This document shows, piece by piece, positions 34,037 through 60,631 of a stretch of DNA of 64,000 bases. Every line of letters begins with the position of its first letter. The stretch's first letter is position 1. The notes under the pieces were generated by a model, which was not told the DNA's origin, made no database searches, and saw only the letters and a program-made list of their open reading frames with translations. The stretch lies in the NCBI GenBank assembly GCA_965267575.1, contig OZ254086.1, positions 864,001 to 928,000 of the forward strand, in the 5' to 3' direction. The stretch is from Calditrichales bacterium (GTDB lineage: Bacteria > Calditrichota > Calditrichia > Calditrichales > J004). The translations under genes and the position numbers were made by a program.

Positions 34037-34044
34037 GATACTTT

Positions 34045-37039: not shown

Positions 37040-37078
37040 TTTGTATAAACAGGCACTGGAAATAACCAGGCAGGAACT

Positions 37079-42044: not shown

Positions 42045-42091
42045 AAAATACCTGATATTGTTTAGATTTTGGCGGCCTTAAAACCGCTTAT

Positions 42092-43456: not shown

Positions 43457-44277
43457 CCCACACTCATGGCTTCCGATTTCTGCAACAGCACCTGCAACTG
43501 GTCGGTATCGCCCTTTTGCATCTCCGTCACCGTCTGCGACACATCGATGCCATTACGCATGCCAAACAAAGTAATATCGAGAATGATATGGTTCGTGGCT
43601 ATATCAACGATGGCCGTGTTTTGCGTCCAGGCCGTCTTTTTAGGCAGCTTGTTATCGGCGTCCCCCATTAGCAACTCCTTTTGATCCACCACCAAAATGA
43701 TTTTATGATTCCATATGCGCATCAGCTCGCGCTCCGGCAGGTTGTAGCTGTACACACAATCTCCCTTTTCAGCCAACTCGGTAAAAGAAAAAAGGATGAC
43801 CTTTACACCGCGTTTACGTGCCTGCTTCAACTCCGAGCGCAGCATACCGGCTTCACGGCTCCACACCGACAAATAAATGCATTTTCGCGCCTTTTCAACC
43901 ATCTCGCGCGCTTTATGGATCATGTTTTCATAACCAACGATGTTCCACAGGTGGCCCGGCTCTATGGCCGTTTCGAATGTTTTCATCGATTTGCGCACAT
44001 CTTCTACACGCTCACGGAACTGGCGCTCCAGCAGATCAAAAAGCTGGTCCGGCGGCAGAGGCGTGTACTTTTGCGGCTCGGTATAAAGTCCGTTAACGGC
44101 ACCCATCGCTTCCAGCTTGCTGATTACGTCGTAAATAGCCGAACGCGGGACGCCGGAATGTTTGCTCAGCTCATAGCGGGTTGCCGGGTGGTTTTGCAAA
44201 AGCGAGACATACGCTTTAGCCTCGTAGGTTGTAAAGCCCAGTTTTTTCATGCGCAGGGCAATATCATCTAATGCCAT
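43453..44277 (-). CDS. TrmB family transcriptional regulator
   Basis: LGFTTYEAKAYVSLL...YELSK.SGVPRS.IY.V...L wHTH plus a PLD-like effector domain. Start set at ATG 44277. Confidence 0.9.
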   Translation of the reverse strand: MALDDIALRMKKLGFTTYEAKAYVSLLQNHPATRYELSKHSGVPRSAIYDVISKLEAMGAVNGLYTEPQKYTPLPPDQLFDLLERQFRERVEDVRKSMKTFETAIEPGHLWNIVGYENMIHKAREMVEKARKCIYLSVWSREAGMLRSELKQARKRGVKVILFSFTELAEKGDCVYSYNLPERELMRIWNHKIILVVDQKELLMGDADNKLPKKTAWTQNTAIVDIATNHIILDITLFGMRNGIDVSQTVTEMQKGDTDQLQVLLQKSEAMSVG

Positions 44278-45472
44278 AAATTGTCCGATCGTTAAAAATG
44301 TAAAGGAGAGCATCATCCAGATGTCCACCCCATTGTCCCCAGTTATGCCCTTCGGCATAAACATCGCTGTTAAATGAAGCGTCCTTCTCCGTCAAAAAAG
44401 TCCGAAGTCGGCTATGAACGCTGTCCTGGTTTTCAAAGCTGCCAAAACTGTAATAAAGCTTTGTCTCCGGAAACGAAGCATCTTCCAGCTCGTCCAGAAT
44501 GCGCAGACTGTCGATCCAGAAAGAGCCGGACTGCGAAAAGACGGCTTGCAGTTCCCCCGCGTAATCCTTTAAAGCATAAAATGATATCAGACCGCCGAGC
44601 GAAGCGCCGCCCATAATCAGGGGCGCATTTTCCGCAAAACCGTACTTTGCTTTTGCTTCCGGAATAACCTCTTCAAAAATCAGGCGCAGGAATTCATCGC
44701 TCATGCGATATTCTTTCATGCGATCAAGCGGATTTATGAAAAGGGCGTTAAGCGCAGGAATGGCGTTTTCCGATATGAGATTATCCAGGATCACGGCAGC
44801 ATTGGCCAAACGCAAATAATCTGAGCCGTCATGAAAAATAATCAGCGGAGAAGCCGGTGTTGCCCGCTGATTGCGGTACACATAAACCTCCCGCTCCGGC
44901 GCTTTTTGGCTCTTCGCTAAGCTTATCGTATCCAACTGTGTATAACTGCGGTCTTTTCGCATCAGCCACTCATCAGGGTATTCATAATGCGGCATGAGCA
45001 GCAGCGAGTTTTCGCCGAAACCGCCCCTGGCAGTTCGCGCATTGAGGCTGTCGAGCTGGTATTCTCCGGCGACTACAATCTTGTACTCCAGACGCGCATC
45101 CGCGGGAAATACGACCTGGGCGTAGTAAAGGTCGGTATCCACTATTCGCAGCATGGGGATGCCTTTGGGCCGCCAGCCCGACATATCACCTGTTACATAA
45201 ACGGGCAGGTCTTTTTTATTACGGTACAAAAAATAGACGAGGCTGTCTTCGATAAGCGGATAATTTTCGAAACTACCCAGCCAGTTGTCTATAAAAAGCT
45301 GTCGTTGTTCCCCCTCCACACCGGCAGCTTCATGCAGCGTTTCTATAAAATCTTTTTTTTCTTCCGCGCAGCCACAGAAAGCCAATAAAAACGCTGAAGC
45401 CGCGAGAAAACAGGCTTTGACGGAAATTGTGGATAACTTGTGGATAAACGCCGTTCTGAGAGCTGTCCTCAT
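44264..45472 (-). CDS. Lipoprotein with a CBM48-like domain and a Fes-like alpha/beta-hydrolase esterase domain
   Basis: Lipobox FCGC; V.GD..GW...YK.VV.G....D.LN module; HDG.DY, nucleophile GASLGG, SQSG and EGHNW motifs. Confidence 0.85.
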   Translation of the reverse strand: MRTALRTAFIHKLSTISVKACFLAASAFLLAFCGCAEEKKDFIETLHEAAGVEGEQRQLFIDNWLGSFENYPLIEDSLVYFLYRNKKDLPVYVTGDMSGWRPKGIPMLRIVDTDLYYAQVVFPADARLEYKIVVAGEYQLDSLNARTARGGFGENSLLLMPHYEYPDEWLMRKDRSYTQLDTISLAKSQKAPEREVYVYRNQRATPASPLIIFHDGSDYLRLANAAVILDNLISENAIPALNALFINPLDRMKEYRMSDEFLRLIFEEVIPEAKAKYGFAENAPLIMGGASLGGLISFYALKDYAGELQAVFSQSGSFWIDSLRILDELEDASFPETKLYYSFGSFENQDSVHSRLRTFLTEKDASFNSDVYAEGHNWGQWGGHLDDALLYIFNDRTIYGIR

Positions 45473-45633
45473 TATTACAAAATGCCTTGTTTAGCGCATG
45501 TCTGCATGCAATAACACAACTAAACCTTTGTTATTAAACGATTTACTTTGATGCGCGCGCCGGACGATTTTTCGCTTGTTGTGTAAACATCAATCACACA
45601 ATCGTAATATTTTATCTTTTGCGCTGTGGATAA
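45428..45633. promoter_or_regulatory. Cluster of DnaA boxes
   Basis: Perfect TGTGGATAA at 45428-45436, 45439-45447 and 45625-45633; an 8/9 match TGTGTAAAC at 45580-45588; all in the same orientation. Confidence 0.7.
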
Positions 45634-45638
45634 TTCGC

Positions 45639-47465
45639 TTATTCGGGGTCGTCCGGCCCCGTATCCACTTCGTCGTTCAAATGACGGTACCATGAGAAAT
45701 AAAGCACCACTGAGGTGACGATCAAAATCGTTAGAACTGCAAAAAACTTGTCCCACTCCCTGGCCATAAGCATCATCCAGGTCAGGAACAGCGAAAGCTG
45801 CCAGGGCACCGCAAAAAAGATTGAGAAAATGTCGCGCCTGTTTTCTTTATTTATCTTCTCCGCCACTGCATCGGGCAGCTGCTTTTTAATGTGTCCCCAT
45901 AACCCAAAGGGTCGTGTTTTTTTGTAGAAGCGAAGCAGTACCTTTTCTTCGGTTTTGGGCGTAAGCAGCGTTACGACGATAATACCCACCAGCGACATTC
46001 CTGCCGCAAACGAAAACGCAAAGTATTCCGGGATATCGGGCCAGAAGATGCGCTGGTAAAAAGCTGCCAGCATCCCCATAATGGTTCCCGCCGTAAAGCC
46101 ATAGCCGTTAAAGCGCCACCAATACCAGCGCACAAGCATGGGCACAATCAGCCCCGCACCGATACCCATGGTAAGCCAGCCCCAAATGTCGTTGATATTG
46201 CGAATGAAGACGCTGAACGCAAGGCCCAGAAGCACGATGATTACGCTTGACCAGCGTGAATGCCTCATCATGGTTGCTTCGCTGGCCTTCGGGTTGATGT
46301 AAGCCTGGTAAATATCCTTTACCCAGTAAGCGGCGCCGGCATTTACCGTGGAGTCGAATGTCGACATGGCCGCCGCCATAAGACCGGCCACAAGAAATCC
46401 CTTAACGCCGATCGGAACAAGCTGGTTGATCACTACCGGCAGCACCGTTTCCGGATCATCGATCACACCGTGCGTCATGCCATAACCAATTCCCATCATG
46501 GCAATCGAAATAATAAAAGGCCAGCGGAAACTAAGCAGAAAGGTCCAGAAGAAAGAAAGCAATCCGGCTTCTTTATCACTTTTGGCGGCGAAGTAGCGTT
46601 GAATCATGTAGCCGCTTGTACCGCCGCTGCCTTCGATGGTTACCTTGAGCAGGTAAAACAAAATGGCTACCCCAAAAAGATTATAAATGGCGTAATGCGA
46701 GTCCGGGTCAATATTGAGCGTCCACTCAGGCGTTATGTCGGTCCAGGCCGCCTTGGTCATCCAGAATTCTTCGTAGCCGCCCCCTTTCATCGGCAATGAG
46801 ATCAGGAACTCTTCCGGCAATACATATTGCGTAAAAGCGATAAAGCAGATTACAACAATGGTCCCGAAAATAATAACGCTTTGAAAAACATCTGTCCAGA
46901 CAACACCGTATAATCCGGAAGCCACCGTATAGATCATCGCCAGGAAAATCATAAGGGTTGCAGCCCAGAACTGCGGCGACAGGCCAAACATACCGGGTAT
47001 GCCCAGGAACTCGGCAATGAACTTACCCGAGCCGATGGCAAAATAAGTTATCATGGCGATCGTCATTACGATATTGGAGAATGCGGCGATAACACGGGCA
47101 ATATGGCCATCGCGCCGTTTTCCGAAGCGCAGGTTCATCCATTCGGCCAGTGTCATAACGTGGGCCCGGCGGTTCCACTTGCCCATAAAGATCATCAGGA
47201 AAGCCATAATCAGTGTAACCCCGCCGCGTATCTCGACAAAAAAGCCGCTGATACCAAGAGCGAAGACCAGGGCCACATTGATCATTGTTCCGCTGACATC
47301 CAGGTTGGACGACATGCCGGATGCGCCCAGCGCCCACCAGGGTATGCCGCGCTGCCCCAAAAAGTAAGACTCTATATCAGCCGAGGCCTTGCGCTGGAAG
47401 TACAGCCCCACCCCGATCATCGAAAGCAGGTAGACAATAACTATTCCATAATCAAGAGTACTCAT
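45639..47465 (-). CDS. Sodium:solute symporter, probably for a sugar
   Basis: YFLG.R.IPWW..GAS, SGLYGVVWTD.FQ, QRYFAAK and AAAMSTFDS motifs. Confidence 0.92.
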   Translation of the reverse strand: MSTLDYGIVIVYLLSMIGVGLYFQRKASADIESYFLGQRGIPWWALGASGMSSNLDVSGTMINVALVFALGISGFFVEIRGGVTLIMAFLMIFMGKWNRRAHVMTLAEWMNLRFGKRRDGHIARVIAAFSNIVMTIAMITYFAIGSGKFIAEFLGIPGMFGLSPQFWAATLMIFLAMIYTVASGLYGVVWTDVFQSVIIFGTIVVICFIAFTQYVLPEEFLISLPMKGGGYEEFWMTKAAWTDITPEWTLNIDPDSHYAIYNLFGVAILFYLLKVTIEGSGGTSGYMIQRYFAAKSDKEAGLLSFFWTFLLSFRWPFIISIAMMGIGYGMTHGVIDDPETVLPVVINQLVPIGVKGFLVAGLMAAAMSTFDSTVNAGAAYWVKDIYQAYINPKASEATMMRHSRWSSVIIVLLGLAFSVFIRNINDIWGWLTMGIGAGLIVPMLVRWYWWRFNGYGFTAGTIMGMLAAFYQRIFWPDIPEYFAFSFAAGMSLVGIIVVTLLTPKTEEKVLLRFYKKTRPFGLWGHIKKQLPDAVAEKINKENRRDIFSIFFAVPWQLSLFLTWMMLMAREWDKFFAVLTILIVTSVVLYFSWYRHLNDEVDTGPDDPE

Positions 47466-47494: not shown

Positions 47495-47653
47495 CTAGAA
47501 AATGGTGTAAATAAACGGTGCCAGCGCACTGCCCTGCGTTAAAACAATAAGCAGACCGAGGCTGATTAAGATGAAAATGATGGGAAAAAGCCACCACTTT
47601 TTATTTTCTTTCAAGAATGAAAAATATTCTGCAACAATACGTACTTTGGACAC
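47495..47653 (-). CDS. DUF5989-like 52-aa membrane microprotein
   Basis: Below the ORF-track cutoff. GTG start with GGAG RBS; MSKVRIVAEYFSFLKENKKWWLFPIIFILISLGLLIVLTQGSALAPFIYTIF carries the KKWWL.P...APFIYT.F signature. Confidence 0.85.
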   Translation of the reverse strand: MSKVRIVAEYFSFLKENKKWWLFPIIFILISLGLLIVLTQGSALAPFIYTIF

Positions 47654-47733: not shown

Positions 47734-47766
47734 AAAAATAAAAAGGAGGCGCAGGAGCGCCTCCTT
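47734..47766 (-). terminator. Terminator after the TBDR-PorV operon
   Basis: AAGGAGGCGC-AGGA-GCGCCTCCTT with a T-rich tail on the minus strand. Confidence 0.75.
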
Positions 47767-47783
47767 GTCAGATCAAACCACGC

Positions 47784-49817
47784 TTATTTCATCATTACCA
47801 TTTTACGTGTTTGTACAACGTCGCCGGCGCGCAGCTGGTAGAAATAGATTCCACTGCCAACCTGGACATTGCTGTTATCCAAACCATTCCATACCAGCTT
47901 ATGAGGTCCGGCCGTTAACTGACCGTTAACCAGCGTACGGATTGTACGACCGGTTACATCATAAACAACAAGCTGAACATCCGTAGCTTTGTTCAGAACA
48001 AACTCAATGTTTGTGCTGGGGTTGAAGGGGTTCGGATAGTTTTGGCGCAGGCTGATGCCTTCAGGAGCGATGATATCGCTGTAGTCATCGATAGCTGTTA
48101 CGCTGTCATAATAGGTACCGTTGGAACCGAATACACGGAATACCGGAGAAGTCGTAACATTGCCTGTATGGTTCTGGGCAAAACCGGCTTCGTTATCAAA
48201 ACCGTTAATGCCGTATTTCCAAACCATGTCCACACCGGCACCGGGGTTGAAGGTAACCGTAATCGACCAGACGTCATCACCGGCCGTAGCATCACCGTCC
48301 GTACCAGCGTCATTCATCTTCAGCGCTTCACGCGTGGGATCGCCGGGAGTAAGGTCCCATACCCAGGCCATTTCCGGATCAGTACCGGAGTGGCCGGAAG
48401 CGAGAAATACATCGTCAATGCTGCTTACATCACCGCCGCCAAAGGTAATGTTACCATACTGCTGCAGGTAACCGATAGCCGGAGTCATGTCAACTTCGAA
48501 AACGATGTTGGTTTCGGTTGTGAAAATATCATCCGGACCGATGTCGCTGAAATAAACCGTATCCAGGACAACTTCGCGGATGTCGTTACCGTTGCTGTCT
48601 TCTTCGTTACCAACGGCAAAGAAGGCACGGTTATCCGTATTGAATTTGGGATCAAAAGCACGGCTTTCCCACACGGTACCACTGCTGTTGGTAATGACAT
48701 ACTTGTAATAAACCGTGTCAGCAATCGGCGTAAGCGAATCTACCCAAATCGTTGAATAGAGGCTTGGATTGAACAGGTCCGGAGAAAGAATATCGCTCGG
48801 ACCGCTCCAGCCGTTGAAACTGCCGCGTACATCCAATGTGTCCGTAGCCGGATCAAATGTACCGGAAAGCTCCTGGATGGAGATGTCGCAGTTGAATACA
48901 ACTTCGAATTCATCTTTTTCGCCCGGCTCAATAACATAAAGATCGCCATTGGAGCCAAACTCACGGAAAACAGGCGATGTGCTTACATCACCCGTGTGGT
49001 TTTGGGCAAAGCCGGCTTCGTTATCATAGCCATTGATGCCGTATTTCCAAACCATGTCCGTACCGGCACCGGGGTTAAAGGTTACGGTAATGGACCAGAT
49101 ATCGTCTTCGGCAACCCTGTCACCATCCATACCGGAGTCATTCATCTTAAGCGCTTCACGCTTTGGATCGCCGGGTGTCAGGTCCCAAACCCAGGCCATT
49201 TCCGGGTCGGTGCCGGAGTGGCCGGAGGCCAGGAATACGTCATCGATGCTGGTAACATCGCCGCCGCCAAAAGTAATCTCGCCGTAGATATCGAGATAAT
49301 CGATGGCCGGAGTCATATCGACTTCAAAAACGACATCGGTTTCAGTCGTAAAAATATCGTCCGGGCTGATATCGCTGAAGTAGACGGTATCCAGAACAAC
49401 CTCTTTCAGGTCGTTTCCATTGTCGTCCGGCTCATTACCCGTGGCGAAGAAAGCGCGGTTATCGGTATTGAAATCCGGATCAAAAGCGCGGCTTTCCCAA
49501 ACGGTACCGCTGCTATTGGTTATTACGTACTTGTAATAAACCGTATCCTGAAGCGGAGTCAGTTCCAGTTCAACCAGAGTCGAATAGAGACTCGGATCAA
49601 ACAGATCCGGCGCCAGGATGTCGCTGGGACCGGCCCAGCCATTGAAGCTGCCGCGTACATCGAGCGTATCCGTTGCCGGATCAAATGTACCGGAGAGCTC
49701 CTGAACGGATATGTCGCAATTGAAAATCACTTCGAATGTTTCCGCTTCCTGGGCGAACGAAGTGGTAATCATAAAGAGCGACACTATCAGAGAGACGAAT
49801 GTAGCTTTGACTCTCAT
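47784..49817 (-). CDS. Acidic secreted protein with two near-identical ~264-aa modules (starch-binding CBM20-like/Ig) and a T9SS/FlgD-type CTD
   Basis: Signal peptide; duplicated FEV.FNCDIS...VRGSFNGW...YYKYV...WES...NR module; QNYPNPFNP...TRKMVMMK tail. Confidence 0.82.
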   Translation of the reverse strand: MRVKATFVSLIVSLFMITTSFAQEAETFEVIFNCDISVQELSGTFDPATDTLDVRGSFNGWAGPSDILAPDLFDPSLYSTLVELELTPLQDTVYYKYVITNSSGTVWESRAFDPDFNTDNRAFFATGNEPDDNGNDLKEVVLDTVYFSDISPDDIFTTETDVVFEVDMTPAIDYLDIYGEITFGGGDVTSIDDVFLASGHSGTDPEMAWVWDLTPGDPKREALKMNDSGMDGDRVAEDDIWSITVTFNPGAGTDMVWKYGINGYDNEAGFAQNHTGDVSTSPVFREFGSNGDLYVIEPGEKDEFEVVFNCDISIQELSGTFDPATDTLDVRGSFNGWSGPSDILSPDLFNPSLYSTIWVDSLTPIADTVYYKYVITNSSGTVWESRAFDPKFNTDNRAFFAVGNEEDSNGNDIREVVLDTVYFSDIGPDDIFTTETNIVFEVDMTPAIGYLQQYGNITFGGGDVSSIDDVFLASGHSGTDPEMAWVWDLTPGDPTREALKMNDAGTDGDATAGDDVWSITVTFNPGAGVDMVWKYGINGFDNEAGFAQNHTGNVTTSPVFRVFGSNGTYYDSVTAIDDYSDIIAPEGISLRQNYPNPFNPSTNIEFVLNKATDVQLVVYDVTGRTIRTLVNGQLTAGPHKLVWNGLDNSNVQVGSGIYFYQLRAGDVVQTRKMVMMK
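48117..49736 (-). repeat. Intragenic tandem duplication: 792-bp units with 828-bp period
   Basis: Unit 1 at 48945-49736 and unit 2 at 48117-48908; collinear and highly similar at protein level, with many synonymous differences. Confidence 0.9.
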
Positions 49818-49870
49818 AGATATACCTCCTGTTGATGGTTAGAGTAAAGGTTTTAAAATCCTGCACCCGC

Positions 49871-50890
49871 TTAAAGGCGCAGAAAAATGGTGAATTTCTG
49901 AACGTTATCAAGCCGCCCGAAATGCTCAAAGGCATAATCGAGCTGCATGTTGAGACCGCCAAAATCCTGACGGATGCCGCCACCCACGGTAAAGCCTTCT
50001 TCGCTGTCCGGCAGGAATAGTGCTTTGTAGCCGCCACGCAGCGCCAGCATATTGTCATACACATATTCGGCGCCGGCATTTACGCTTTGCGCGTTGTCAT
50101 TGGGGTGCATCACGTCGGACACAAGGGTCATTGTGTTTTTTTCGTTATTAACCAGATCGTAAGCCAGCCCAAACCGGAACAACAGGGGAAGGTCATACTG
50201 GCCCGTTTCCAGCAAAGCGTTAAGCTGATCATTATTACCGCTGATATTTTTATTTATGTCCACCTGCACCAGCAGGTCATCGCCGCTCATCTGCATTTTG
50301 CCGCCAAAGTTGGAGATGCTGATACCAAGACGCAGCCCGTCGAAAGGCGTGGTAAACAAGGCGCCCACGTCAAGGGCGAAACCGCTGGCCGAAGAGTTAT
50401 AGATATCTTCCTGAATGTATTTACCCGTGAAACCAATCATGAATTTGTCCGTCAGGCGACGGGCATAGGAGAGGCCTACGGCAAAACTTCCGGCCGAGAA
50501 CGTCACACCGGTACCTTCCGGATTGTCCTCCGTGGTCTGTTCAAATTCGCCCATATTCAGGTTGGTAATGCTCACGCCGAATACACCGGCCGTACCCACC
50601 GGCACCGCAACGCCGGCAAACTCAAAATTTATATCCGCCAGCCAATCGGAGTGGTTGAAAATTATTTCAGGTCTGTCGAGCTGGGCAATACCGCCAACGT
50701 TCCAGAACAACGCGGACGCGTCGTTGGAAACAGCGGTAAAAGCGCCGCCCATACTAAGCGGCCTTGCGCCAACACCGATGGTTAAGAAAGGAGCAGCCGT
50801 TGTACCCACCTTTGTAACGTCGCGCGCCTCGGCAACCACCTGGGCGCCCAGCAAAACGGTTATCACAAACAATGCGAGTTTTCGGTTCAT
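49871..50890 (-). CDS. PorV/PorQ (UPF0164)-family beta-barrel
   Basis: FLTIGVGAR..SMGGAF.AV.NDAS..FWN.GG N-terminal signature followed by barrel strands. Confidence 0.9.
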   Translation of the reverse strand: MNRKLALFVITVLLGAQVVAEARDVTKVGTTAAPFLTIGVGARPLSMGGAFTAVSNDASALFWNVGGIAQLDRPEIIFNHSDWLADINFEFAGVAVPVGTAGVFGVSITNLNMGEFEQTTEDNPEGTGVTFSAGSFAVGLSYARRLTDKFMIGFTGKYIQEDIYNSSASGFALDVGALFTTPFDGLRLGISISNFGGKMQMSGDDLLVQVDINKNISGNNDQLNALLETGQYDLPLLFRFGLAYDLVNNEKNTMTLVSDVMHPNDNAQSVNAGAEYVYDNMLALRGGYKALFLPDSEEGFTVGGGIRQDFGGLNMQLDYAFEHFGRLDNVQKFTIFLRL

Positions 50891-50926
50891 AGTGCTAACC
50901 TCTTCCCGATAAATCGTTTCTCGTTG

Positions 50927-53900
50927 TTATTTGATGACGGCGAATTTGCCGACTTTTTTGCCAATCCCCGGCGCATCCACGTGATAGATGTAAACACCAT
51001 AGGCCACATCCAGCTGATCCCTGCTCAGCAGGTCCCAATCCGCGGTACCATCGGTAACGGTGGACTCGTGATGGATCGTATCGACGAGTTCGCCTCGCAC
51101 ATTGTATATGCGGATGGTACACACTTTGGGCAGGTGGATAAAGTGAATGGCCCGTTCACCGCGCCCGCTGCTGAAGGTGTTTCGCGGCTCCCAGGCTGCG
51201 GCGGCAATGTAGGGGTTGGGTACAACTTTAATTTTGTCAAGATCGTCTTTTGCAAGCGTTTTGTCTTCTTCCGGACCTTCTGCCGTGAACTCAAAACGGT
51301 CATAGCTCAGGAAAGGTTTGTTAACCGGCAGGATGAGCACGTCACCGGCCTGCGGCAGGACTTTTGTGCTGTCCCATAATGACATGGTTACGCTATATGT
51401 TGGATCATAGCGATCTCTTAACTGATTATATTCAAAGAATATGACTATATCATTTCCGTCCAGAACGCCTTTTAAGCTGTCCGGCTCGGAGTTAACGTTG
51501 TTGTCCGGTCCGCGCTCAAGGACGTTAAATTCTACATATCTGTTTTCCGACGTGTTCTTGACGCGGAAATTGACCGGCGTTTTTCTGAAGCTGTTGGGCA
51601 CCAGGAAGTTGGAGCTGGTGTCTATACCCGCTTCGCCTACTTCAATCTGGTAACTGGCCGGATAGCGCACGCCCTGGAAAACACTGAGGCTGAGCACAGA
51701 CCATCCCGCGGGTGTCGGCTTCAGGATATTGCGCGTTGTGTCCGTCCATGTAACCTCCGTAGGTACAGGACCGGTAATCCAATCGTTGCGCAGGCGCAGT
51801 TTCACGCCATCAAATACGGTGGCGTCCACGTTAATATTTGTATTCAGAGGTACAACGGTATCACCCGTCGTCACATTGTACACATAAAAGCCATCCGTCG
51901 TACGCAGGAAGGTTGTATCGCTTGCTCCGCGAACGATGTACTTGTCCGTAAAGCCAACCTGATAGGTATTGCCGTCCTTTACCTCCAGCGGATCAATAAC
52001 CTCCAGGGAGACGCTGCCGCTGGCATCGCCATCAACGCGCTCCAGGCTTTCCATGGCATCGCCCGGCGGTACATATCCGGCAACCGGAGCTTCAGGCCGC
52101 ACCACTACCACATTCTGGCCCAGCTCAATTTCACCGGCCGTGTTGATGGCGGCAAATTTGGATGTTTCCGACGGCTGCAGAATGCGGCGCTCACCGGAGG
52201 TCGGATCTGTTGCGTTGATACCGCGGTCATAAGCGGTAACCGCGTAGAAATAGTTGAAACCGTTTTTAACCGTGGTGTCTACATAGGTGTGGCGCAATCC
52301 CGTATTATCTCCCAGGTAAAATACAGCGCCCGTCTGCGGATCAACCTCGGGGAAAAAGCCGCTGTCGGCGTTTACAATATCAAATTGCGCAACAGGCACG
52401 TCACTTATGCGGCTGCCAAACACGTTGGTAACAACACCCGTTTCATCCCAGGTGGGGAAGGTAGCGCGGTAGACTTTATACCCCTCAAAATCATTACCGT
52501 CACCGGTAACAACTTCCGAAAGCCTGTCATAACTCTGCTCGGAATTGCTGTCCCAATACAAGGTAACTTTGTTGTCACCCGCGGCAGCCCTAAGCTTGGG
52601 CAACTGGGGTGCTTTTGCAAAATTGTAATCGTTATTATAAATAAGCTGTACGGTATTCTTTGTGCGGAAAATTTCGTTTTCGTTATTACCAAAGAAGAAG
52701 GCCAGCGAGATGCGTTCGGTCTGGTTGACCTGAAGCGGGAAGTAAGCCGTTCCGTAGATAAAGTCCACGTCATCGTTCTGCAGTTCGTCGTCGAAGTAGC
52801 CGGGAAGCAGTGTTTCCCAAAGCTGGTCATCGTTGCGCAGGCGGATCAGGTTAAACGGCTTGAACAAATAGAAACTCGTCAAACCGATCTGGTCAGACTC
52901 GTCAATATCCGTTTTATCGATATTAGGCTCACCGGGAAGACCCGTGTCAACAAGATTACCTGTGCCATCGTCCTGGTAACCCGACGTGGGCAATCCATCA
53001 CCTTCGCCAAAGTCGTTTGTACCCGGTTGACCGTCCAGACCCACGTCATCAATCGAGGCGTTCCAGTCTCCATCATTATCAATACCGTCGGCACGGCTTT
53101 CATCTATAAGCGGATTGGTGCTGTTACCGCCGATAAAGTCTTTATAGGCCAAACCGATTTGCGGGTTTTCTTCATCTACCAGACCGTTGTTGTTGTTATC
53201 GATACCGTCCTGGATCTCTGTGTTTTCATCGATAAGACCGTTTAGGTTGTTATCAATATTATCATAGGGCTGTTCGTACAGCGTATCGCCGGGCTGGAAG
53301 GAATAAGTTTCATCATTTACGGTAAACGTGATGCCTTCGGCGGGAAAATCTACAACGCTGCGTGTAAAGAACGGTGAATCATAATCGATCGTAACTACCT
53401 GCTCGCCTGTCTGTATGACCCGCGGTAACAATAAATCTTCCGTGATTACCGCACTTCCATCAGTACCATCATTGTCATCATCAAAACCATTTACGCTATT
53501 GCCCGGGCTTTCCAGGAAGGCGTAACCCAGGTAAGCAACAGGTGTCCATCCCGTTCCGCCGATATTATCATTATCCCAGGAATAGGTGATGTTTTCTCGG
53601 GCATTAAAACGGGAGTTGTCATCGTTTGTATCACCGTCGCCGCCGATTGTAGTACCGACGATCATGCCAAAAACGGCTTTATCGTAATTGGTTGTACCGA
53701 TGTTAGTCACATCATAAAGCCAAAAGACTGTATTTTGAGCCAGGGTTTGCGACCACTGCAAACCACGGACATTGGCAAGCAAAGCCAAACCTCCGCGAGT
53801 CGTGTCATTGGCATCTGGGAAAAAGTCAAAACCACGAATAAACTCCTTATCGCGGTTGTCATCCATTGCCCAGTAGCTTTCCTGGTCGGCATTAAACTGG

Positions 53901-54412
53901 TCCTTGCCAAAAAAGCCGTTCCACTGTCCGGGCCAGCCGGGGTCGTTGGCATCGGTGCGTCTGTCGGGCCAGTCCGTGGGCCAGGTTCCCCGCTGATGGC
54001 TCATGGCAACGCCACTGTCGGAAGCGTTAAAACCGGGCAACGGCTCCCAGCCCCAGAAAAAGGTGGGATCATTGGGGTCAACATCGTTGCTGCCGCGCGG
54101 TCCGTCAGACACGGTCACGGGCGTAATGATCTGGCCGTCGGATAACTCAATTTCAGCACCTACCATGATGCTGATGTCGCCTACGTAAAAATGACCGCTG
54201 TTGATAGGCCATTCACCGCCAAAATCTTCAGCGGCATTTTCACGGCCAATAAGACCATAATTAAAAAAGGTTGTCCGTACCTGGTTGCCGCTGTGAACGT
54301 TTTTTTCACGATTATTGGGATGCCCTTTGAGGGTCTCGTAATACTGCGCGGAAACAAGGGCGGGCAAAATGGCGATTATGGCAGCCAGCCGAATAAGGTG
54401 TTTCAGTTTCAT
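50927..54412 (-). CDS. Large secreted non-lipoprotein with Asp/Asn-rich Ca-binding-like repeats, an Fn3-like region and a variant T9SS-type CTD
   Basis: SPI signal peptide; DGIDNNNNGLVDE-type repeats; DFEGYKVYR and YFYAVTAYD; tail IKVVPNPY...IHFIHLP..CTIRIY...WDL...GVYIYHV...GKFAVIK. Confidence 0.85.
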   Translation of the reverse strand: MKLKHLIRLAAIIAILPALVSAQYYETLKGHPNNREKNVHSGNQVRTTFFNYGLIGRENAAEDFGGEWPINSGHFYVGDISIMVGAEIELSDGQIITPVTVSDGPRGSNDVDPNDPTFFWGWEPLPGFNASDSGVAMSHQRGTWPTDWPDRRTDANDPGWPGQWNGFFGKDQFNADQESYWAMDDNRDKEFIRGFDFFPDANDTTRGGLALLANVRGLQWSQTLAQNTVFWLYDVTNIGTTNYDKAVFGMIVGTTIGGDGDTNDDNSRFNARENITYSWDNDNIGGTGWTPVAYLGYAFLESPGNSVNGFDDDNDGTDGSAVITEDLLLPRVIQTGEQVVTIDYDSPFFTRSVVDFPAEGITFTVNDETYSFQPGDTLYEQPYDNIDNNLNGLIDENTEIQDGIDNNNNGLVDEENPQIGLAYKDFIGGNSTNPLIDESRADGIDNDGDWNASIDDVGLDGQPGTNDFGEGDGLPTSGYQDDGTGNLVDTGLPGEPNIDKTDIDESDQIGLTSFYLFKPFNLIRLRNDDQLWETLLPGYFDDELQNDDVDFIYGTAYFPLQVNQTERISLAFFFGNNENEIFRTKNTVQLIYNNDYNFAKAPQLPKLRAAAGDNKVTLYWDSNSEQSYDRLSEVVTGDGNDFEGYKVYRATFPTWDETGVVTNVFGSRISDVPVAQFDIVNADSGFFPEVDPQTGAVFYLGDNTGLRHTYVDTTVKNGFNYFYAVTAYDRGINATDPTSGERRILQPSETSKFAAINTAGEIELGQNVVVVRPEAPVAGYVPPGDAMESLERVDGDASGSVSLEVIDPLEVKDGNTYQVGFTDKYIVRGASDTTFLRTTDGFYVYNVTTGDTVVPLNTNINVDATVFDGVKLRLRNDWITGPVPTEVTWTDTTRNILKPTPAGWSVLSLSVFQGVRYPASYQIEVGEAGIDTSSNFLVPNSFRKTPVNFRVKNTSENRYVEFNVLERGPDNNVNSEPDSLKGVLDGNDIVIFFEYNQLRDRYDPTYSVTMSLWDSTKVLPQAGDVLILPVNKPFLSYDRFEFTAEGPEEDKTLAKDDLDKIKVVPNPYIAAAAWEPRNTFSSGRGERAIHFIHLPKVCTIRIYNVRGELVDTIHHESTVTDGTADWDLLSRDQLDVAYGVYIYHVDAPGIGKKVGKFAVIK

Positions 54413-54430
54413 ATCTGTTGTCTCTCGTTT

Positions 54431-57121
54431 TTAAAAGTCAAACGAAACGCCAAACTGTACGCGTCGCGGTTCGGTGTAAAAATCGGGCCGGACGATAAAG
54501 CGCGGATCGGCATCGGCGCCGCTCACGGCACTTTGCAGCGTATAGGTAGCGCGTCCGGTGTCGCCCCAAACAACTTGCTCATTACGCGCGTCCAGCAGAT
54601 TGTAAACTTTCAGGAAAAGCTGAAGCTTTGTCTCCTTATCAAAAAAGTCCAGCGGTATATCTTTAAACAGCTGCATATCCAGTGTTACCAGGTTGGGACG
54701 GCGTTCGCTGTTTTGCTGCAAACCGATGGAACCGGCACTTGTACTGGCCCCGCGCTGCGTGCCCTGTACCGGAGTCGGCGTATATGGCAGCCCGCTCTCA
54801 AAACGTCCCAGCAAACTCAGCCCCCAGGTACCGACACCCACATATATATTACCGTTCAACACGTGGCGGCGATCCCAATCCAACGGAATAATGCTTTTGC
54901 GCGGCTCACGATTAGACTGTATGTCATTGAAAGCATCGGTCGGGTTGGAAGCATTACCTTCAGCAACCTGCATGGTGTAGGAAACGTTGGCCGAGTAATA
55001 ATTGGAAAAACGCTTGTTAAGCGAGAACGTGATGCCGCGGACATTGGCATAATCACGGTTTTCATATTGCGAATAAAGGATATCCGGGCGGTAGGTTTCG
55101 ATCAGCGGCGAGGTGCTTACCCAGTTGCGCACGTCACGATAGAAGCCGGTGACGTCAACGCCGATATCATCCGTCATTTGCTGCTGCAGGCCTATCTCGT
55201 ACATGACCGTGCGCTGCGGCTTCAGATCGGCGTTACCCACCAGGTTGCCCTGGCCGCGCGTAACCTTAAAGCCCGGGTTGGCATAAAGCAGCTGAAATTC
55301 GGGAATCTGCGAAAAGTGGCCGTAAGAAGCATGGATAACGCCTCGCGCACTGATCGGAAACGCCATACCGATACGCGGCGAAACGCTGTATTTGGGATCG
55401 GCCTTCTCATACCAGATGTCTTCCAGCGAAGAGGGTGTATCATCCTGGTACTCTTCTCTCAACGGCGAGAAGCGGCTGGGATCCTGCGGATCGGCAAGCA
55501 CATTACCCTTGGAGTCGAAGTAGTCAAAACGCAAACCGATATTCAGAATAAAGTCGTCATACTCCACTTTGTCCTGGATATAAAAGGCAAACTCAATCGG
55601 CTCAAAGGTATACTGACCAAAATTGATATCTTCTACCGGGGGCCTTATCGGTGTATAAAGCGTGTCCGAAACATTGGAATCGATGATATTGAAATCTTCA
55701 AGATTCAGCTCGTAGCGGCGCGCTTCAAAACCTGTTTTGATAAGGTGCTTATCCGAAATCTGTGACGTAATATCAAACTTCACGATGTCATTCAGGGTAC
55801 TGCGGTTAAAATAATTTGTCTGCTGCCCGCCCTTGGAAAACTGAAAGGCCGAAACGGCAAACTCCTCCGAGGCATTGTCCACATAACGCGGATCGGAAGG
55901 GCTTTCATAAACATATTGTTCGAATTCTTTTTTGAAGCTGGCAAGCTTTAAGGTATAAAACGTGGTTACGTTGATCGTATGGTCAAATGTGAGCGAGCCG
56001 TTATAACCGGTCTGGAACTTTTGGAACTCAGCATCCGGATTGAATTTGTAAAAGTGATTGTAATCCTGCCACTCACGGTCTTCATAATTGAAGCCAAAGC
56101 GCAGCTTCATGCTGGGATTGATCTGGTAGGTCAGTTTATTCTGCGATGTATACCAGCGGTTCCAGTTCATCGCTACAAAAGAGCTGTCGCCCGGCGTACC
56201 ATCCGTGTTAAAAATGCGCTGGCCGTAGAGATAGCCGTCATCGTAACTGTTGCGAAAGTTGGTAAAAAAGGTCAGCCGGCCGTTTGTGAAAGGTACAGGG
56301 CCGCCAACATTTACTTTCCAGTCGTAAAGGTGGCTCGGAGAAACTTCATCTATGTTGGTAAAAAGGCCGTCATCGCTGGATATGTAATCGCCCGTGTAAG
56401 CGGAAACGGAACCTGAATATTTCTGGCCGCCGTCTTTGGTCACAATATTGATAATACCGGACATGGCCTGGCCGTATTCAGCATTAAAGGTTCCGCTGAT
56501 GACCTGCAAGCTCTGAACAGCATCGTTTTCAATTTCCACACCATTACTGCCATCAAAAGCATCGGTCACCGAAACGCCATCCACCCAAAAGGCAACCTCG
56601 GAAGAACGGCCCCCGCGGATATGAAAACCACCGCCGGCATCCCGCGTGATACCCGCCTGCAACTGCAACACATCCTCAAACTCTTCAACCGGTATATTCG
56701 CGATATCGTCTGCCGTCACTTCAGATTGAGATGAAGTCAGGTCCTTACGGATCATATCGCGATCGGCCACAACAACGATCGACTCATCCAGCTCCATGGC
56801 ATCTTCACGTAACTGTGCGTTTTGGCGCGTAGTAAAGTCAACGCTGACCCTTACACCTTCAACGCGTTTTTCCTGATATCCGATGTATTGGAAGACAAGG
56901 GTGTAAACACCCGGCGGGACGTTAAGAATAAGGTAATTACCTTCAAGGTCGGTTGTGGCACCGAGGAAAGTACCGTCTACAAGTACGTTTACTCCGATAA
57001 GCGGTTCACCTGTGCCGGCATCCTCTACGGAGCCAACGATTTTACCGGTCGTACCCGCGCTTGCACTAATGGGAATGAGCAGGCTTATTAATAAACAAGC
57101 CTTGATGATTTTTCGCACCAT
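54431..57121 (-). CDS. TonB-dependent receptor with an N-terminal carboxypeptidase-regulatory-like domain
   Basis: GTTGKI.G.V.D..TGEPL.G.NV; plug HIRGGRSSE...ISGTFNAEYGQAMSGIINIVTK; C-terminal PRRVQFGVSFDF. Confidence 0.95.
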   Translation of the reverse strand: MVRKIIKACLLISLLIPISASAGTTGKIVGSVEDAGTGEPLIGVNVLVDGTFLGATTDLEGNYLILNVPPGVYTLVFQYIGYQEKRVEGVRVSVDFTTRQNAQLREDAMELDESIVVVADRDMIRKDLTSSQSEVTADDIANIPVEEFEDVLQLQAGITRDAGGGFHIRGGRSSEVAFWVDGVSVTDAFDGSNGVEIENDAVQSLQVISGTFNAEYGQAMSGIINIVTKDGGQKYSGSVSAYTGDYISSDDGLFTNIDEVSPSHLYDWKVNVGGPVPFTNGRLTFFTNFRNSYDDGYLYGQRIFNTDGTPGDSSFVAMNWNRWYTSQNKLTYQINPSMKLRFGFNYEDREWQDYNHFYKFNPDAEFQKFQTGYNGSLTFDHTINVTTFYTLKLASFKKEFEQYVYESPSDPRYVDNASEEFAVSAFQFSKGGQQTNYFNRSTLNDIVKFDITSQISDKHLIKTGFEARRYELNLEDFNIIDSNVSDTLYTPIRPPVEDINFGQYTFEPIEFAFYIQDKVEYDDFILNIGLRFDYFDSKGNVLADPQDPSRFSPLREEYQDDTPSSLEDIWYEKADPKYSVSPRIGMAFPISARGVIHASYGHFSQIPEFQLLYANPGFKVTRGQGNLVGNADLKPQRTVMYEIGLQQQMTDDIGVDVTGFYRDVRNWVSTSPLIETYRPDILYSQYENRDYANVRGITFSLNKRFSNYYSANVSYTMQVAEGNASNPTDAFNDIQSNREPRKSIIPLDWDRRHVLNGNIYVGVGTWGLSLLGRFESGLPYTPTPVQGTQRGASTSAGSIGLQQNSERRPNLVTLDMQLFKDIPLDFFDKETKLQLFLKVYNLLDARNEQVVWGDTGRATYTLQSAVSGADADPRFIVRPDFYTEPRRVQFGVSFDF

Positions 57122-57260: not shown

Positions 57261-58631
57261 TTACCAGTTGTATTGCTCTCTGACGACTGTAACGATTCGT
57301 GGCACCCTTTGCTGTAAGGCTTGCGGGGAGAGGCCTTCAAGGAGCGCACTGGTATCAACACGGGCGGGATTTTCCTGTCGTATTTCGGCGAGGATATTTT
57401 TGCGGTATTGCCATTCTGTGGGGTTTGCCTCAGCGGCACTAGCCAGCAGGATGGATTTCTGGTATTCGTCAGCGAGAAGTTCGCGACGGTATTTGGTCAT
57501 TTCCTGGCGGAAGCGCGGTGATTCGTCTATACCCAGTTCGCGGGCTTTTTTTAACAGGTAGTGGTCGCGCACCATATCTATAATCTGCCGGGCCATTGCC
57601 GTTTCGGAAAGCACTTCAGGGCGTTTCAGCGGCGGCATCCATTGCAGTTTTTCCATCAGGTCGCCAACGGTCCAGATGCCGTCATCGTATTGAACCAGTT
57701 CCTGATTCATCAGCGCCTCTGCCTCGCTGCGGATCAGTCGTATCTCCCGGTCGCTGATAGTAGGCTCAATTATAAAACGCTGGCCTTCGCTTCGGTCTAC
57801 ATATTTGCGCACCTGCTCCGTAAACTGCTGTAACACGGCTGAAACAATCGTTACCGATTTACCTTTCATTACTTCCTTCACAAAAGCGGCGCTCTCTTTT
57901 GCCGCCCGGCGGTTTTGGACATCTTCAGCAAAGGTCGTGCTGTTGTTCTTGAAATAGTTGCGGTCCAGAAAAAGGTTTTGCTTAACATTCTCCACGCGCA
58001 TTACGTGCCAGCCTCTGGTCGAACGCAGCGGCCGGGAAATCTCGCCGACACGCAAATTATAGACCGGCTCTACCAGGTAAGGGTCCAGGTCACTGACGCG
58101 CAGATAGCCGAGATAACCGCCATTATTTGCCAACGACGTATCACGAAAAGCGCCGCGCGCCAGCGTTTGAAAAGTCTCGCCCGATTGCAGTTTTTTGTAA
58201 TAAGCGGCAGCCTGCTGGCTATCGGGGGCAAAGAGGTGGCGCAGTTCCACACTGATATTTTGACGCTTGTATTCTTCCCAGGCTTCCTCTTCGCTCACTT
58301 CAATCTGGCCCAGCACCTGTTCGCGGTAAAGCTGCTTAAGCATTTCGTTATCGCGGATGTATTGCAAACGCTTTTCAACATGCTGCATGGTGTCCAGCCC
58401 ATAGCGTTCGGCGGCCTGCGCCAGGTAAACGCGGTCAACCATGTGATCAATCTGCTGCAGGTAGGCGCTGCGCAGCGTACTGTTGTTGCGAAAGTCCGGG
58501 TAAAGTGTAAAACGTTCGATAAAGTGTTCGCGCGTTATCGTATCGTCATCCACCCGGGCCACCACATTGGGGTCATCCTTTGTGCCGCAGCCGGCCACAA
58601 CAATCATTAATAAAAACAAAAAATATTTCAT
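57261..58631 (-). CDS. Parvulin-type peptidyl-prolyl isomerase lipoprotein (PrsA/SurA-like)
   Basis: Lipobox VAGC; VVARVD...IT, RHL, F..LA, GGYLG and GEISRPLRS..GWHV motifs. Confidence 0.88.
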   Translation of the reverse strand: MKYFLFLLMIVVAGCGTKDDPNVVARVDDDTITREHFIERFTLYPDFRNNSTLRSAYLQQIDHMVDRVYLAQAAERYGLDTMQHVEKRLQYIRDNEMLKQLYREQVLGQIEVSEEEAWEEYKRQNISVELRHLFAPDSQQAAAYYKKLQSGETFQTLARGAFRDTSLANNGGYLGYLRVSDLDPYLVEPVYNLRVGEISRPLRSTRGWHVMRVENVKQNLFLDRNYFKNNSTTFAEDVQNRRAAKESAAFVKEVMKGKSVTIVSAVLQQFTEQVRKYVDRSEGQRFIIEPTISDREIRLIRSEAEALMNQELVQYDDGIWTVGDLMEKLQWMPPLKRPEVLSETAMARQIIDMVRDHYLLKKARELGIDESPRFRQEMTKYRRELLADEYQKSILLASAAEANPTEWQYRKNILAEIRQENPARVDTSALLEGLSPQALQQRVPRIVTVVREQYNW

Positions 58632-60631
58632 TGCGGATTCTCTTGTTGCTCACGGTAAGTTACTATTTTTTGGCGCAGATTTCGGGCCTGGGTCAGGCTC
58701 GGCTCCAGGCCCAGCGCTTTATCTATCTCGCGGTTGGCGTCTTCAAAGCGCTTCAGGTTGGCGTAGCTCACGGCCTGCAGATAATGAATATTGGCTTTCT
58801 GGAAATCACTGAAATCGCCGGTTTTCATATCGCGGCTTAGCGCCAGGGCCAGGTATTTTACGGCATTGTCAAACTGCTTTGCGAAAACATAGGCCTGGCC
58901 CAGCTTGACCATCAGGTTGGCGTTGGAGGGATCGCGCTCAAGGGCGTGTTTATACCAGCGCGGCGCTTCGCGGAAGTCTTCCTGCAAAGCAGCCAGATCG
59001 CCCAGCTTCATGTGCGGAATATAGTTGTCATAAAAAGCCAGATTTACGGCACGCAATTCATCGAATGCTTTTTTATACTGTTTTTGCGATGTGTAGTATT
59101 CGGCCAGGTCATAATGGGCTTCGCTCCAGGAGATTTCATTTTTCAGGTGGCGGTAAGCCAGGTTTGCCGTTTGCGGGTCAACCGTTTTCGATGGCTTTAT
59201 TTCAAAAGCATCGCCGCCGCTTTTAAAGGGCCAACGGTTTGTTAAAAGCTGCACACGCAAATGGCCGAATTCAAGATCAAGATCCGTAACGCTGCCACGG
59301 GTTTTGCGGTAACCGCTTAAAATATCGTTAATGTTGGATTGTTTGAGCAGCCGCGCTTCGTACGCGATGGGTTTGGGCGGATTTAACACCTGCAGGCGCC
59401 GCATCACCTCAAAGAAGGTCTGAGCCATCAAGCGGTAACCGTCGAAATTGGGATGCAAGTGCTCATGGAACAGGGTGCCGCCGGCAATACCTTTGGGAGA
59501 GGCCGCCTCAAAAACAACGCCCATATCGGCCAGCGGTACGTTATGCTTTTCCGCAACAAAGCCGATGCGCGCGTTTATCGCTTCCGGAGCTCGAAAGCGC
59601 AGCATGTCATGTTCTTTGGCCCGAAGGAATGCTTCACGCGCAGCCAGGCTGTCATCCAGCATCAGCAATGTCTTGCCCATCTCGAAATGGACATTGGCTA
59701 CGGCAGAATCGTTTTGTGCCGTTTCACGCAACAGTTGCAAAGCATCATCCGTGTCACCGTCTTCGCGGACAGATAATGCCCTGAGATATTTTTCGCGCAC
59801 GGCCGGCGCGGAAAAGTCCGCCGAGACAAAGGGCCGCTGGTCCGCCAGGTTGCTGACGAGTGTGCTCAGGATAACCGTAACACTGTCGGACTTGGCCATC
59901 TGTACAATCGCCGAAAGGTTCTCTTCAAAGTTGCGCACACCGGCACGGAAAACCGCATCGTTCTTTTCGATGGTACGGTCTTCCGCCAGCCGCTGCATCA
60001 GCGACGCATTTGCCTCGGAATCCCCGAAAAGCCCAATGGCCCCGTGTATGATATCATTTAAAAGCTGATAAATGCGGTAACGCTTTAAAGCAAAATGGGC
60101 CCGTACAAGCGAGGGGTTTTGTGTAAATGATATGGAAGAGGCCGCCCCGTAAGCGCCGTAAAATTCATTATGCCCCATGTATATAACGATCACATCAGGA
60201 TCGGCCTGCAGCACCTCCGGCATCAGGTCGCGCACGGTGAAGCTGTTCACCGCCGAGATGCCCAGATTGACCACTTCAACATAATGATCCAGCAGAGCGT
60301 TGCGCAGGCGGTACTGCAGCTGAAAGGGGAAGGTGGCATTCACCTCGTAGGGAAAACCGGCCGTGGTGGAACCGCCTAAACAGATCACACGCAACGATTT
60401 TTCCTGGCGCTCAACGTCAAACAGTTCTTCCGCTGCTTCAGGAATAATGTCATCTTTCAGGTCAAAATAGCGCCTGGTTACTTCCCGGTTTACCTGCCAT
60501 TTTTCCTTACCGCCCAGTTCCGTTTTGACAAATAGCGGGTACTCGCCGCCATAACCGGCTACCCTTAAAAAAACTTCACCGATAACAAAAATCAGTACCA
60601 CCGTGACAAACGAAAAGAGAACGCGTTTCAT
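58628..60631 (-). CDS. Membrane-anchored SGNH/GDSL hydrolase-fold protein with TPR repeats
   Basis: TM anchor + E.FLR..GYG; LGGSTTAG, VNLG, YMGHNEFYG, RFRAP and EHLHP motifs; C-terminal TPRs. Confidence 0.85.
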   Translation of the reverse strand: MKRVLFSFVTVVLIFVIGEVFLRVAGYGGEYPLFVKTELGGKEKWQVNREVTRRYFDLKDDIIPEAAEELFDVERQEKSLRVICLGGSTTAGFPYEVNATFPFQLQYRLRNALLDHYVEVVNLGISAVNSFTVRDLMPEVLQADPDVIVIYMGHNEFYGAYGAASSISFTQNPSLVRAHFALKRYRIYQLLNDIIHGAIGLFGDSEANASLMQRLAEDRTIEKNDAVFRAGVRNFEENLSAIVQMAKSDSVTVILSTLVSNLADQRPFVSADFSAPAVREKYLRALSVREDGDTDDALQLLRETAQNDSAVANVHFEMGKTLLMLDDSLAAREAFLRAKEHDMLRFRAPEAINARIGFVAEKHNVPLADMGVVFEAASPKGIAGGTLFHEHLHPNFDGYRLMAQTFFEVMRRLQVLNPPKPIAYEARLLKQSNINDILSGYRKTRGSVTDLDLEFGHLRVQLLTNRWPFKSGGDAFEIKPSKTVDPQTANLAYRHLKNEISWSEAHYDLAEYYTSQKQYKKAFDELRAVNLAFYDNYIPHMKLGDLAALQEDFREAPRWYKHALERDPSNANLMVKLGQAYVFAKQFDNAVKYLALALSRDMKTGDFSDFQKANIHYLQAVSYANLKRFEDANREIDKALGLEPSLTQARNLRQKIVTYREQQENPQ

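Follow-up and report, generated by a model that had tools for sequence, protein, structure and literature searches.

The four-gene string and its setting

The window analysed here is a 64,000-nucleotide stretch of the genome of a Calditrichales bacterium (contig OZ254086.1, positions 864,001 to 928,000 of the forward strand), and all coordinates below are positions within it. Our subject is a string of four minus-strand open reading frames (ORFs), 47784-57121, whose limits were reproduced exactly. In the direction of transcription, they encode a predicted TonB-dependent transporter (P0001; 54431-57121, 896 amino acids (aa)) with an N-terminal CarboxypepD_reg-like domain, a Plug and, behind them, a divergent barrel; a candidate large surface protein (P0002; 50927-54412, 1161 aa) of an unannotated family, with a hydrophobic N-terminus lacking Cys; a PorV/PorQ-family outer-membrane barrel (P0003; 49871-50890, 339 aa) that passes the family model NF033709; and a predicted surface protein for starch binding, built of tandem CBM20-like modules and ending in an ordinary type A C-terminal domain (CTD) of type IX secretion systems (T9SS) (P0004; 47784-49817, 677 aa). 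The first three genes, hereafter the triad, form a strongly conserved unit across many genomes, and their conservation, the nature of the large protein and the joint divergence of the three carry most of the argument that follows.

The gaps between consecutive genes are 18, 36 and 53 nt. The string is closed by an intrinsic-terminator-like hairpin on the same strand (47743-47766), with a 10-pair stem (7 G-C) followed by a T-run, which starts 18 nt past the P0004 stop. This hairpin is the best-ranked of 10 terminator-like sites in the region, where such sites show no excess as a class (10 found versus a mean of 11.9 in shuffles). A small hydrophobic ORF of ~52 codons (about 47495-47653, minus strand) lies between the terminator and the next gene. 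According to Pfam, the downstream genes form a minus-strand starch group (39159-47465) comprising an SSS transporter (45639-47465), an esterase-like gene and a TrmB regulator on the same strand as the string, a GH13 gene (42092-43456) and a second GH13 gene with Por_Secre_tail, that is, a type A CTD (39159-42044). The first-pass annotation, made from the sequence alone, had described four tightly spaced, co-oriented genes ending in a terminator within a GH13/TrmB/SSS locus, and the ORFs, gaps and hairpin bear this out.

Conservation and spread of the triad

Species-representative genomes yielded 620 candidate stretches, at least 534 of which encode a relative of P0002; 80 loci, which contain 84 large genes, were kept for analysis. 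By record title, these loci belong to Ignavibacteriota (17), Fidelibacterota (12), Bacteroidota-labelled genomes (11), Calditrichota (10), Rhodothermota (5), and Stahliibacteriota, Kryptoniota and Acidobacteriota (1 each), with 22 unplaced. A P0001-like transporter is encoded upstream of the large gene in 63 of the 67 cases with upstream room (>3.2 kb); in 59 of them it comes directly before that gene, and in the other four the barrel gene separates the two. Of the 64 cases with downstream room, 62 have the PorV-like gene as a neighbour (59 downstream, 3 upstream), and the whole triad is present in 48 of the 50 loci with room on both sides, so that the synteny survey suggested in the first-pass annotation came out in favour of a conserved triad. 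Of the four cases that lack a transporter upstream, three have runs of N at its position and one is the second member of a tandem pair. A split gene and a tandem pair, both followed by a barrel gene, account for the other two misses. L009, L022 and L074 were considered as transporter-less counter-examples and rejected, with N-runs lying just upstream of the large gene.

Several loci depart from the common arrangement. The barrel gene precedes the large gene in L005, L006, L012, L029 and L063, the first three of which form one clade on the tree and are linked to GH26 or sulfatase genes. Two triads stand back to back in one locus in L071, L077, L076 and L049, and L028 has two large genes ahead of a single barrel gene. 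A complete triad is also found on an Acidobacteriota-labelled contig (L054), outside the FCB (Fibrobacterota-Chlorobiota-Bacteroidota) group; on the tree, it nests among Ignavibacteriota and Calditrichota rows.

As to the four-gene unit originally proposed, its first three members are conserved, but the unit is probably larger. A SurA-like parvulin peptidyl-prolyl isomerase (PPIase) gene with Rotamase and SurA_N_2 domains (Pfam; 57261-58631, minus strand) is located 139 nt upstream of P0001, and a co-oriented relative stands beside the triad in 29 of the 80 loci, mostly just upstream of the transporter. This likely accessory gene may therefore represent a fifth component of the module.

The large protein P0002

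P0002 matches no Pfam family at E<=0.01 (2025 copy), and neither this copy nor NCBIfam release 20 contains a model for its family; its sole NCBIfam match is a weak one to the PorZ C-terminus (E=0.0027, 16 bits). The profile of the P0002 family retrieved 0 matches in the PDB at E<=1. The family itself is large: the scoring of 8000 candidates found more than 2044 relatives, and when all 1.84 billion representatives were scanned, 632 clusters (50% identity) matched it at E<=1e-30. None of the 120 listed relatives carries a Pfam domain or an informative name, and all 30 of 30 ESM Atlas clusters retrieved for a homologue of P0002 (P0091) are unnamed; P0002 itself is absent from that atlas.

The hydrophobic N-terminus, read from the translation, contains no Cys and hence no lipobox. 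The full-length AlphaFold2 (AF2) model, built from 36 sequences (predicted local distance difference test, pLDDT, 73; predicted template modelling score, pTM, 0.61), is almost entirely beta. The SusD fold is all-alpha. A SusD-like fold is thus excluded for P0002, and the SusD/RagB assignment finds no footing in a Pfam match, in the beta-rich model or in the Cys-less signal region. The statement that the gene after the transporter is not a SusD lipoprotein is thereby upheld. The Ca-binding-like repeats reported before are present, as sequence motifs only: D/N/G-rich D-x-[DN]-x-[DN]-G motifs occur at residues 311, 387 and 405.

In a Foldseek search of the PDB with the whole model, the top match was PorZ (5m11, E 4.8e-7, TMq 0.09), followed by Fn3/Ig chains. 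Because only such low-TM chains were retrieved, the N-terminal part was folded alone. Residues 25-610 (AF2, 52 sequences) reached pLDDT 86.0 and pTM 0.87, and Foldseek then gave 3 weak matches at E<=1e-3 (best E 1.2e-4, TM at most 0.30). The fold matches of this part comprise dextran dextrinase, cyclic glucan synthase, GH94 and GH149 phosphorylases, a PL26 lyase and galactose-mutarotase-like proteins. In our reading, offered as a lead, the element common to them would be a galactose-mutarotase-like beta-supersandwich; given the weakness of the matches, a carbohydrate-binding role of the N-terminal unit is likewise a lead only. P0002 is neither SusD-like nor a recognisable enzyme; of the two outcomes for this protein that the first-pass annotation named as fatal to its proposal, a SusD fold is excluded and a stand-alone enzyme is improbable.

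Along its length, P0002 can be divided into four parts, all encoded on the minus strand. Residues 25-610 (52583-54340) form a conserved, compact N-terminal unit with D-rich loops in the AF2 model, and the loops at 398-513 are of low confidence in the full-length model. Residues 611-780 (52073-52582), with modelled strands at 607-771 and many invariant columns, make up an apparently Fn3-like beta-sandwich region, the Fn3 label being our reading of motifs, without a model hit. Residues 781-1050 (51263-52072) are the fastest-evolving region, with only 41% identity to the closest locus, L001, compared with 67-78% in the other regions; AF2 nevertheless folds it into well-formed beta domains (block pLDDT mostly 75-92), and it is a candidate for the substrate-specific or most exposed part of the protein. 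Residues 1051-1161 (50930-51262) correspond to the tail, which the profile comparison and the model present as a diverged type A CTD with a family-specific insert. Conservation across the family peaks at residues 121-320, 441-480, 641-680 and in the tail, and has its minimum in 781-1050.

A probable diverged type A tail

The assignment of the tail as a diverged type A CTD is supported by profile-profile comparison: hhalign of the last 112 residues of the P0002 family against 82 type A tails from the loci gave a probability of 95.3% and E 2.3e-8 over 66 columns. A PNP[YFV] motif is found in all 54 of the 54 P0002-family tails; 53 of the 54 members end in K, as do 67 of the 82 type A tails. The PNP motif lies a median of 97 residues from the end in the P0002 family versus 78 in 81 type A tails, a difference that fits an insert of about 19 residues. 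The insert (residues 1066-1087) coincides in the model with a loop of low confidence (1067-1085), yet it contains invariant residues. Seven strands are modelled between residues 1062 and 1159, in agreement with the description of T9SS tails as seven-stranded (PMC10994853).

As the first-pass annotation had noticed, the P0002 tail (VVPNPY...GKFAVIK) differs from the three ordinary tails in the window; the Por_Secre_tail model detects only the latter, in the 677-aa P0004, a GH13 protein and a Kelch protein. A type B tail was considered for P0002 and rejected, there being no PF13585 match at E<=0.01.

The transporter, the barrel and the binding protein

In P0001, Pfam recognises CarbopepD_reg_2 (4e-20) and Plug (6e-11; 43 bits versus a cut-off of 23.9), with no match to any Pfam barrel model at E<=0.01. 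The SusC/RagA model TIGR04056 covers residues 27-240 only and scores below threshold (90.2 bits versus 368), and barrel segments within 583-743 are matched by NCBIfam siderophore-receptor models and PhuR. The P0001 family profile retrieves solved TonB-dependent transporters, including Cir (2.8e-20) and a SusC homologue (1.2e-12), with the matches mostly covering the N-terminal domain and the plug.

P0003 is a member of the PorV/PorQ family, with 229.3 bits against the NF033709 cut-off of 90 over residues 30-336, so that the earlier claim of a PorV-family gene immediately following P0002 holds. It falls below the equivalog cut-offs for PorV (NF033710, 92.1/250), PorQ (NF033711, 91.6/220) and PorV2 (NF052325, 82/325). 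The P0003 family profile matches PorV of F. johnsoniae (6h3i_F) at 5e-26, and a BamG match is weak (9e-5, 21.7 bits versus a cut-off of 250).

P0004 had been called a tandem binding protein, and it indeed consists of two copies of ~265 aa, 85% identical to each other, and a type A tail that passes both PF18962 (29.6 bits versus 27) and TIGR04183 (37.6 versus 23). Against CBM_20 (PF00686), the whole protein scores 26.6 bits versus 23.3, with no single stretch passing, and there is a weak CBM53 match. Among the 21 members of the P0004 family, CBM_20 is detected in 16 (best 5e-24), CBM48 in 8, CBM53 in 7 and Por_Secre_tail in 20; SusF_SusE is matched in only one of the 21 relatives, at 2e-4.

Glycan context and joint divergence of the triad

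Same-strand neighbours were scanned with Pfam in the first 19 of the 80 loci. Genes for GH13, GH94, PF10091, GH26, GH66, GH2 or sulfatases are present in 13 of the 19, and the scanned loci also hold LacI regulators, SSS or ABC sugar transporters and many T9SS-tailed proteins. Seed searches detected such carbohydrate genes in at least 33 of the 80 loci, a lower bound because the seeds were limited to families seen in the first 19.

For each of the three triad proteins, a FastTree tree was built from 54 rows, namely 53 complete triads and the window. The 25 rows that could be labelled GH13, GH94 or GH26 need 2 changes on each of the three trees, which is the minimum possible; on the large-protein tree, shuffled labels need a mean of 7.5 changes, and 0 of 200 shuffles were as low as 2. 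The GH94 clade spans three phylum labels, and the window triad belongs to an all-GH13 clade of five rows. Pairwise distances among the three proteins correlate at r 0.79-0.84. Two triads encoded in one metagenome-assembled genome (MAG) are 41-44% identical to each other, and the nearest relatives of each are the same for all three of its proteins. The three proteins diverge jointly, which is what the co-phylogeny test suggested in the first-pass annotation was to show, and shared ancestry contributes to all of these tree and distance figures.

We further split P0002 into five regions and compared partial correlations of pairwise distances. Tail distances correlate with those of the barrel when the transporter is controlled (partial r 0.376) and hardly with those of the transporter when the barrel is controlled (0.070), whereas the four other regions show partial r of 0.40-0.45 with the transporter and 0.09-0.26 with the barrel. 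In a bootstrap over taxa (1000 resamples), the sign was kept in 99.7% for the tail, and the opposite sign in 97-99.7% for the other regions. The divergence of the tail thus appears to track the PorV-like barrel and that of the rest of P0002 the transporter, a correlation among related sequences and not proof of contact.

Other genes in the window

Beyond the SurA-like PPIase gene lie two paralogous GDSL-lipase plus TPR genes (58628-60631 and 60655-62772, minus strand), the first of which overlaps the PPIase gene by 4 nt; relatives of these genes occur in 12 of the 80 loci. Just upstream of the starch locus, a plus-strand group (32933-39083) encodes a CarboxypepD_reg protein, a GAF/sigma-54 activator, a PEGA-domain Ser/Thr kinase, the Kelch-repeat protein with a type A T9SS tail, and a DUF5683 protein. 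A 1711-aa ORF (22821-27956, minus strand) combines an amino-acid-permease/SLC12-like N-terminus with ~1000 further residues without a Pfam match, and a UvrD-type helicase (9467-12460, minus strand) has an RNase_T exonuclease domain inserted at residues 610-760. The remainder of the 64-kb window consists of housekeeping genes.

Comparison with known systems

As in SusC/SusD systems, a transporter with an N-terminal carboxypeptidase-regulatory-like domain is directly followed by the gene for a putative surface partner; the pair is set among genes for carbohydrate-active enzymes (CAZymes), regulators and inner-membrane transporters, and paralogous sets exist for different glycans. Unlike in those systems, however, the partner has 1161 aa, is all-beta and shows neither a lipobox nor a SusD domain, the transporter fails the SusC/RagA model, and a third gene, for a PorV-like barrel, is nearly always present. 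PULDB defines a polysaccharide utilization locus (PUL) by the susC/susD gene tandem (PMC5753385). With no SusD-like gene among the window ORFs scanned, the locus is not a PUL under this definition.

The adjacency of the cargo gene to a private PorV-like barrel recalls type B SprB/SprF, where the barrel is believed first to carry the uncleaved cargo and afterwards to anchor it (PMC10202324, PMC10994853), but the barrel here is of the PorV/PorQ family, the tail is type A-like, and the pair is tied to a nutrient transporter rather than to gliding. PorZ-PorQ and PorU-PorV resemble the present pair in combining a type A-like tail with a PorV/PorQ-family barrel, and in them the barrel keeps the bound tail (PMC10202324), as is proposed here. 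PorZ is itself the only NCBIfam match and the top Foldseek match of P0002, both weak. In contrast to these known pairs, the one described here occurs in glycan loci and in several paralogous copies per genome. P0004, in turn, resembles SusE/SusF in having tandem starch-binding modules, predicted surface display and a place beside the transporter, and differs from them in that its predicted anchor is a type A T9SS tail, not a lipid, and its modules are CBM20/48/53-like.

The table of the Rhodothermus marinus xylan locus lists, as Rmar_1070-1073, a TonB-dependent receptor and, after it, three hypothetical proteins, of which the first and the third have Por tails (PMC6987092); by table annotation alone, this gene order is like that of a triad locus. 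A Rhodothermus MAG (L055) carries the large and PorV-like genes. Among the papers searched in full text, no other contains the Rmar_1070-1073 tags. No description of the triad was found in the full-text literature, supplements and paywalled literature lying outside the search, and in the genome papers of Caldithrix abyssi and Melioribacter roseus it goes unmentioned in the passages on TonB, SusD, Por secretion and the outer membrane or gene cluster. In our assessment, the triad combines known part types in a widespread manner that has apparently gone undescribed.

A proposed glycan capture and import module

We consider it somewhat probable that the locus is an alpha-glucan-specific copy of a widespread, SusD-independent module for glycan capture and import in the FCB group. 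The best reading of the sequence comparisons is that a private PorV paralogue would hold the surface partner of this module in place. What is directly observed is the gene content, the conserved state of the unit and its changing carbohydrate context; the mechanism is our inference from them. It would run as follows. The large, beta-rich P0002 would cross the inner membrane by Sec and then travel as T9SS cargo, its tail being recognised by the adjacent PorV/PorQ-family barrel P0003. The tail would stay uncleaved on P0003, making the latter both a dedicated carrier and a permanent membrane anchor; precedents for a retained tail are the pairs PorZ-PorQ and PorU-PorV and, for type B cargo, the PorP/SprF carriers (PMC10202324, PMC10994853). 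The body of P0002 would associate with the TonB-dependent transporter and hand over oligosaccharides, in the role of SusD. P0004, with its CBM20-like modules and ordinary type A tail, would hold starch at the surface as SusE/SusF do, and secreted GH13 would cut it; the products would enter via the transporter and, with TrmB as the regulator, cross the inner membrane by the SSS permease. The barrels are probably chaperoned by the SurA-like PPIase linked to the triad.

Other explanations share parts of this scheme. P0003 could be a dedicated export carrier only, with P0002 a free-standing or lipopolysaccharide-anchored glycan binder that makes no contact with the transporter and is linked to it through co-regulation. 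The fourth gene indicates that CTD-bearing binding proteins belong to such loci anyway, and synteny alone is weak evidence for binding. Yet the N-terminal 780 residues of P0002 are conserved across loci for unrelated glycans while the binding protein changes, the body of P0002 co-varies more with the transporter than with the barrel, and the large gene stands directly after the transporter in 59 of 67 cases, with the barrel between them in four more; on these grounds we think the export-only explanation unlikely. We give less weight again, as quite improbable, to a T9SS-independent pair in which P0003 is a FadL-type barrel that grips P0002 through extracellular loops after P0002 has reached the surface by another route. 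BamG, a FadL homologue, binds BamH in this manner (PMC12578637), the weak BamG match of P0003 points in the same direction, and the P0002 tail fails the curated CTD models. That tail, however, shows apparent homology to type A CTDs and shares their terminal K, P0003 passes the PorV/PorQ family model, with its family profile matching solved PorV at 5e-26, and the loci are full of ordinary CTD cargo.

Slightly less credible still is the possibility that P0002 is a new carbohydrate-active enzyme merely served by the barrel and the transporter. For its N-terminal unit, the best fold matches are parts of glycoside phosphorylases, dextran dextrinase and a lyase, and the protein has many invariant acidic residues. 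These matches are weak, however, and their common element is, in our reading, the non-catalytic supersandwich; Pfam, NCBIfam and the PDB profile search revealed no catalytic family in P0002, and one conserved region serves alpha-glucan, GH94, GH26 and GH66 loci, which does not fit a bond-specific enzyme. Most improbable of all, to a degree that leaves little room for it, is that P0001 works outward and exports P0002. The carboxypeptidase-regulatory-like domain at the N-terminus of P0001 is shared with Oar of Myxococcus, which is needed for the secretion of PopC. Oar is a TonB-dependent transporter that protein secretion requires (PMC6434023). Here, by contrast, P0002 has its own T9SS-type tail and a carrier-type barrel, and the CAZymes, sugar regulators and inner-membrane sugar transporters of the loci fit import.

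Several observations weigh against the proposed import module. The P0002 tail has no match to PF18962 (Por_Secre_tail) or TIGR04183 at E<=0.01, and hhalign set the type A YPNPFN motif opposite the insert of the P0002 family rather than opposite its PNP motif, so that the register of the two tails is uncertain. The fold matches of P0002 are weak (TM at most 0.30). Six of the 19 scanned loci show no CAZyme or sulfatase match (E<=1e-10, same-strand neighbours within 8 kb), and glycan labels were available for only 25 of the 54 tree rows. The suggested pairings of tail with barrel and of body with transporter come from synteny and from distance correlations that are inflated by shared ancestry. 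Pfam scans detected no T9SS core gene within the 64-kb window, and the presence of a T9SS in the host is surmised from the three ordinary CTD proteins encoded there. Finally, canonical susC/susD pairs have been reported in Melioribacter roseus and Rhodothermus marinus (for Rhodothermus, PMC6987092), and MAGs of these genera also carry the large gene (L029, L050, L055). The first-pass annotation had proposed an alternative uptake system in which a private PorV paralogue exports or anchors the large protein as partner of the transporter, replacing SusD. The last of these points stands for the present locus but not as a general claim, given the canonical pairs in the related genera, and the proposal as a whole is partly supported.

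Implications

A broader hypothesis, which we put forward tentatively and regard as rather doubtful, is that outside the classical Bacteroidota the T9SS of the FCB group builds nutrient importers. In these, T9SS-delivered proteins of ~1100 aa, which an insert-bearing type A tail would lock onto a PorV paralogue of their own, would form an extracellular lid on a dedicated TonB-dependent transporter; this three-protein utilisome would have evolved independently of, or before, SusCD and multiplied to one copy per glycan. If true, the role of PorV-family carriers would extend from secretion and gliding to nutrient uptake, and a family that lacks annotation, although it comprises several hundred clusters at 50% identity, would gain a function. 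PUL prediction starts from the susC/susD pair (PMC5753385) and therefore overlooks triad-based loci, even though Ignavibacteriota, Fidelibacterota (Marinimicrobia), Calditrichota, Rhodothermota and others commonly carry the triad. As a marker, the triad would allow glycan use to be read from the genomes of largely uncultured lineages of sediments, hot springs and the ocean.

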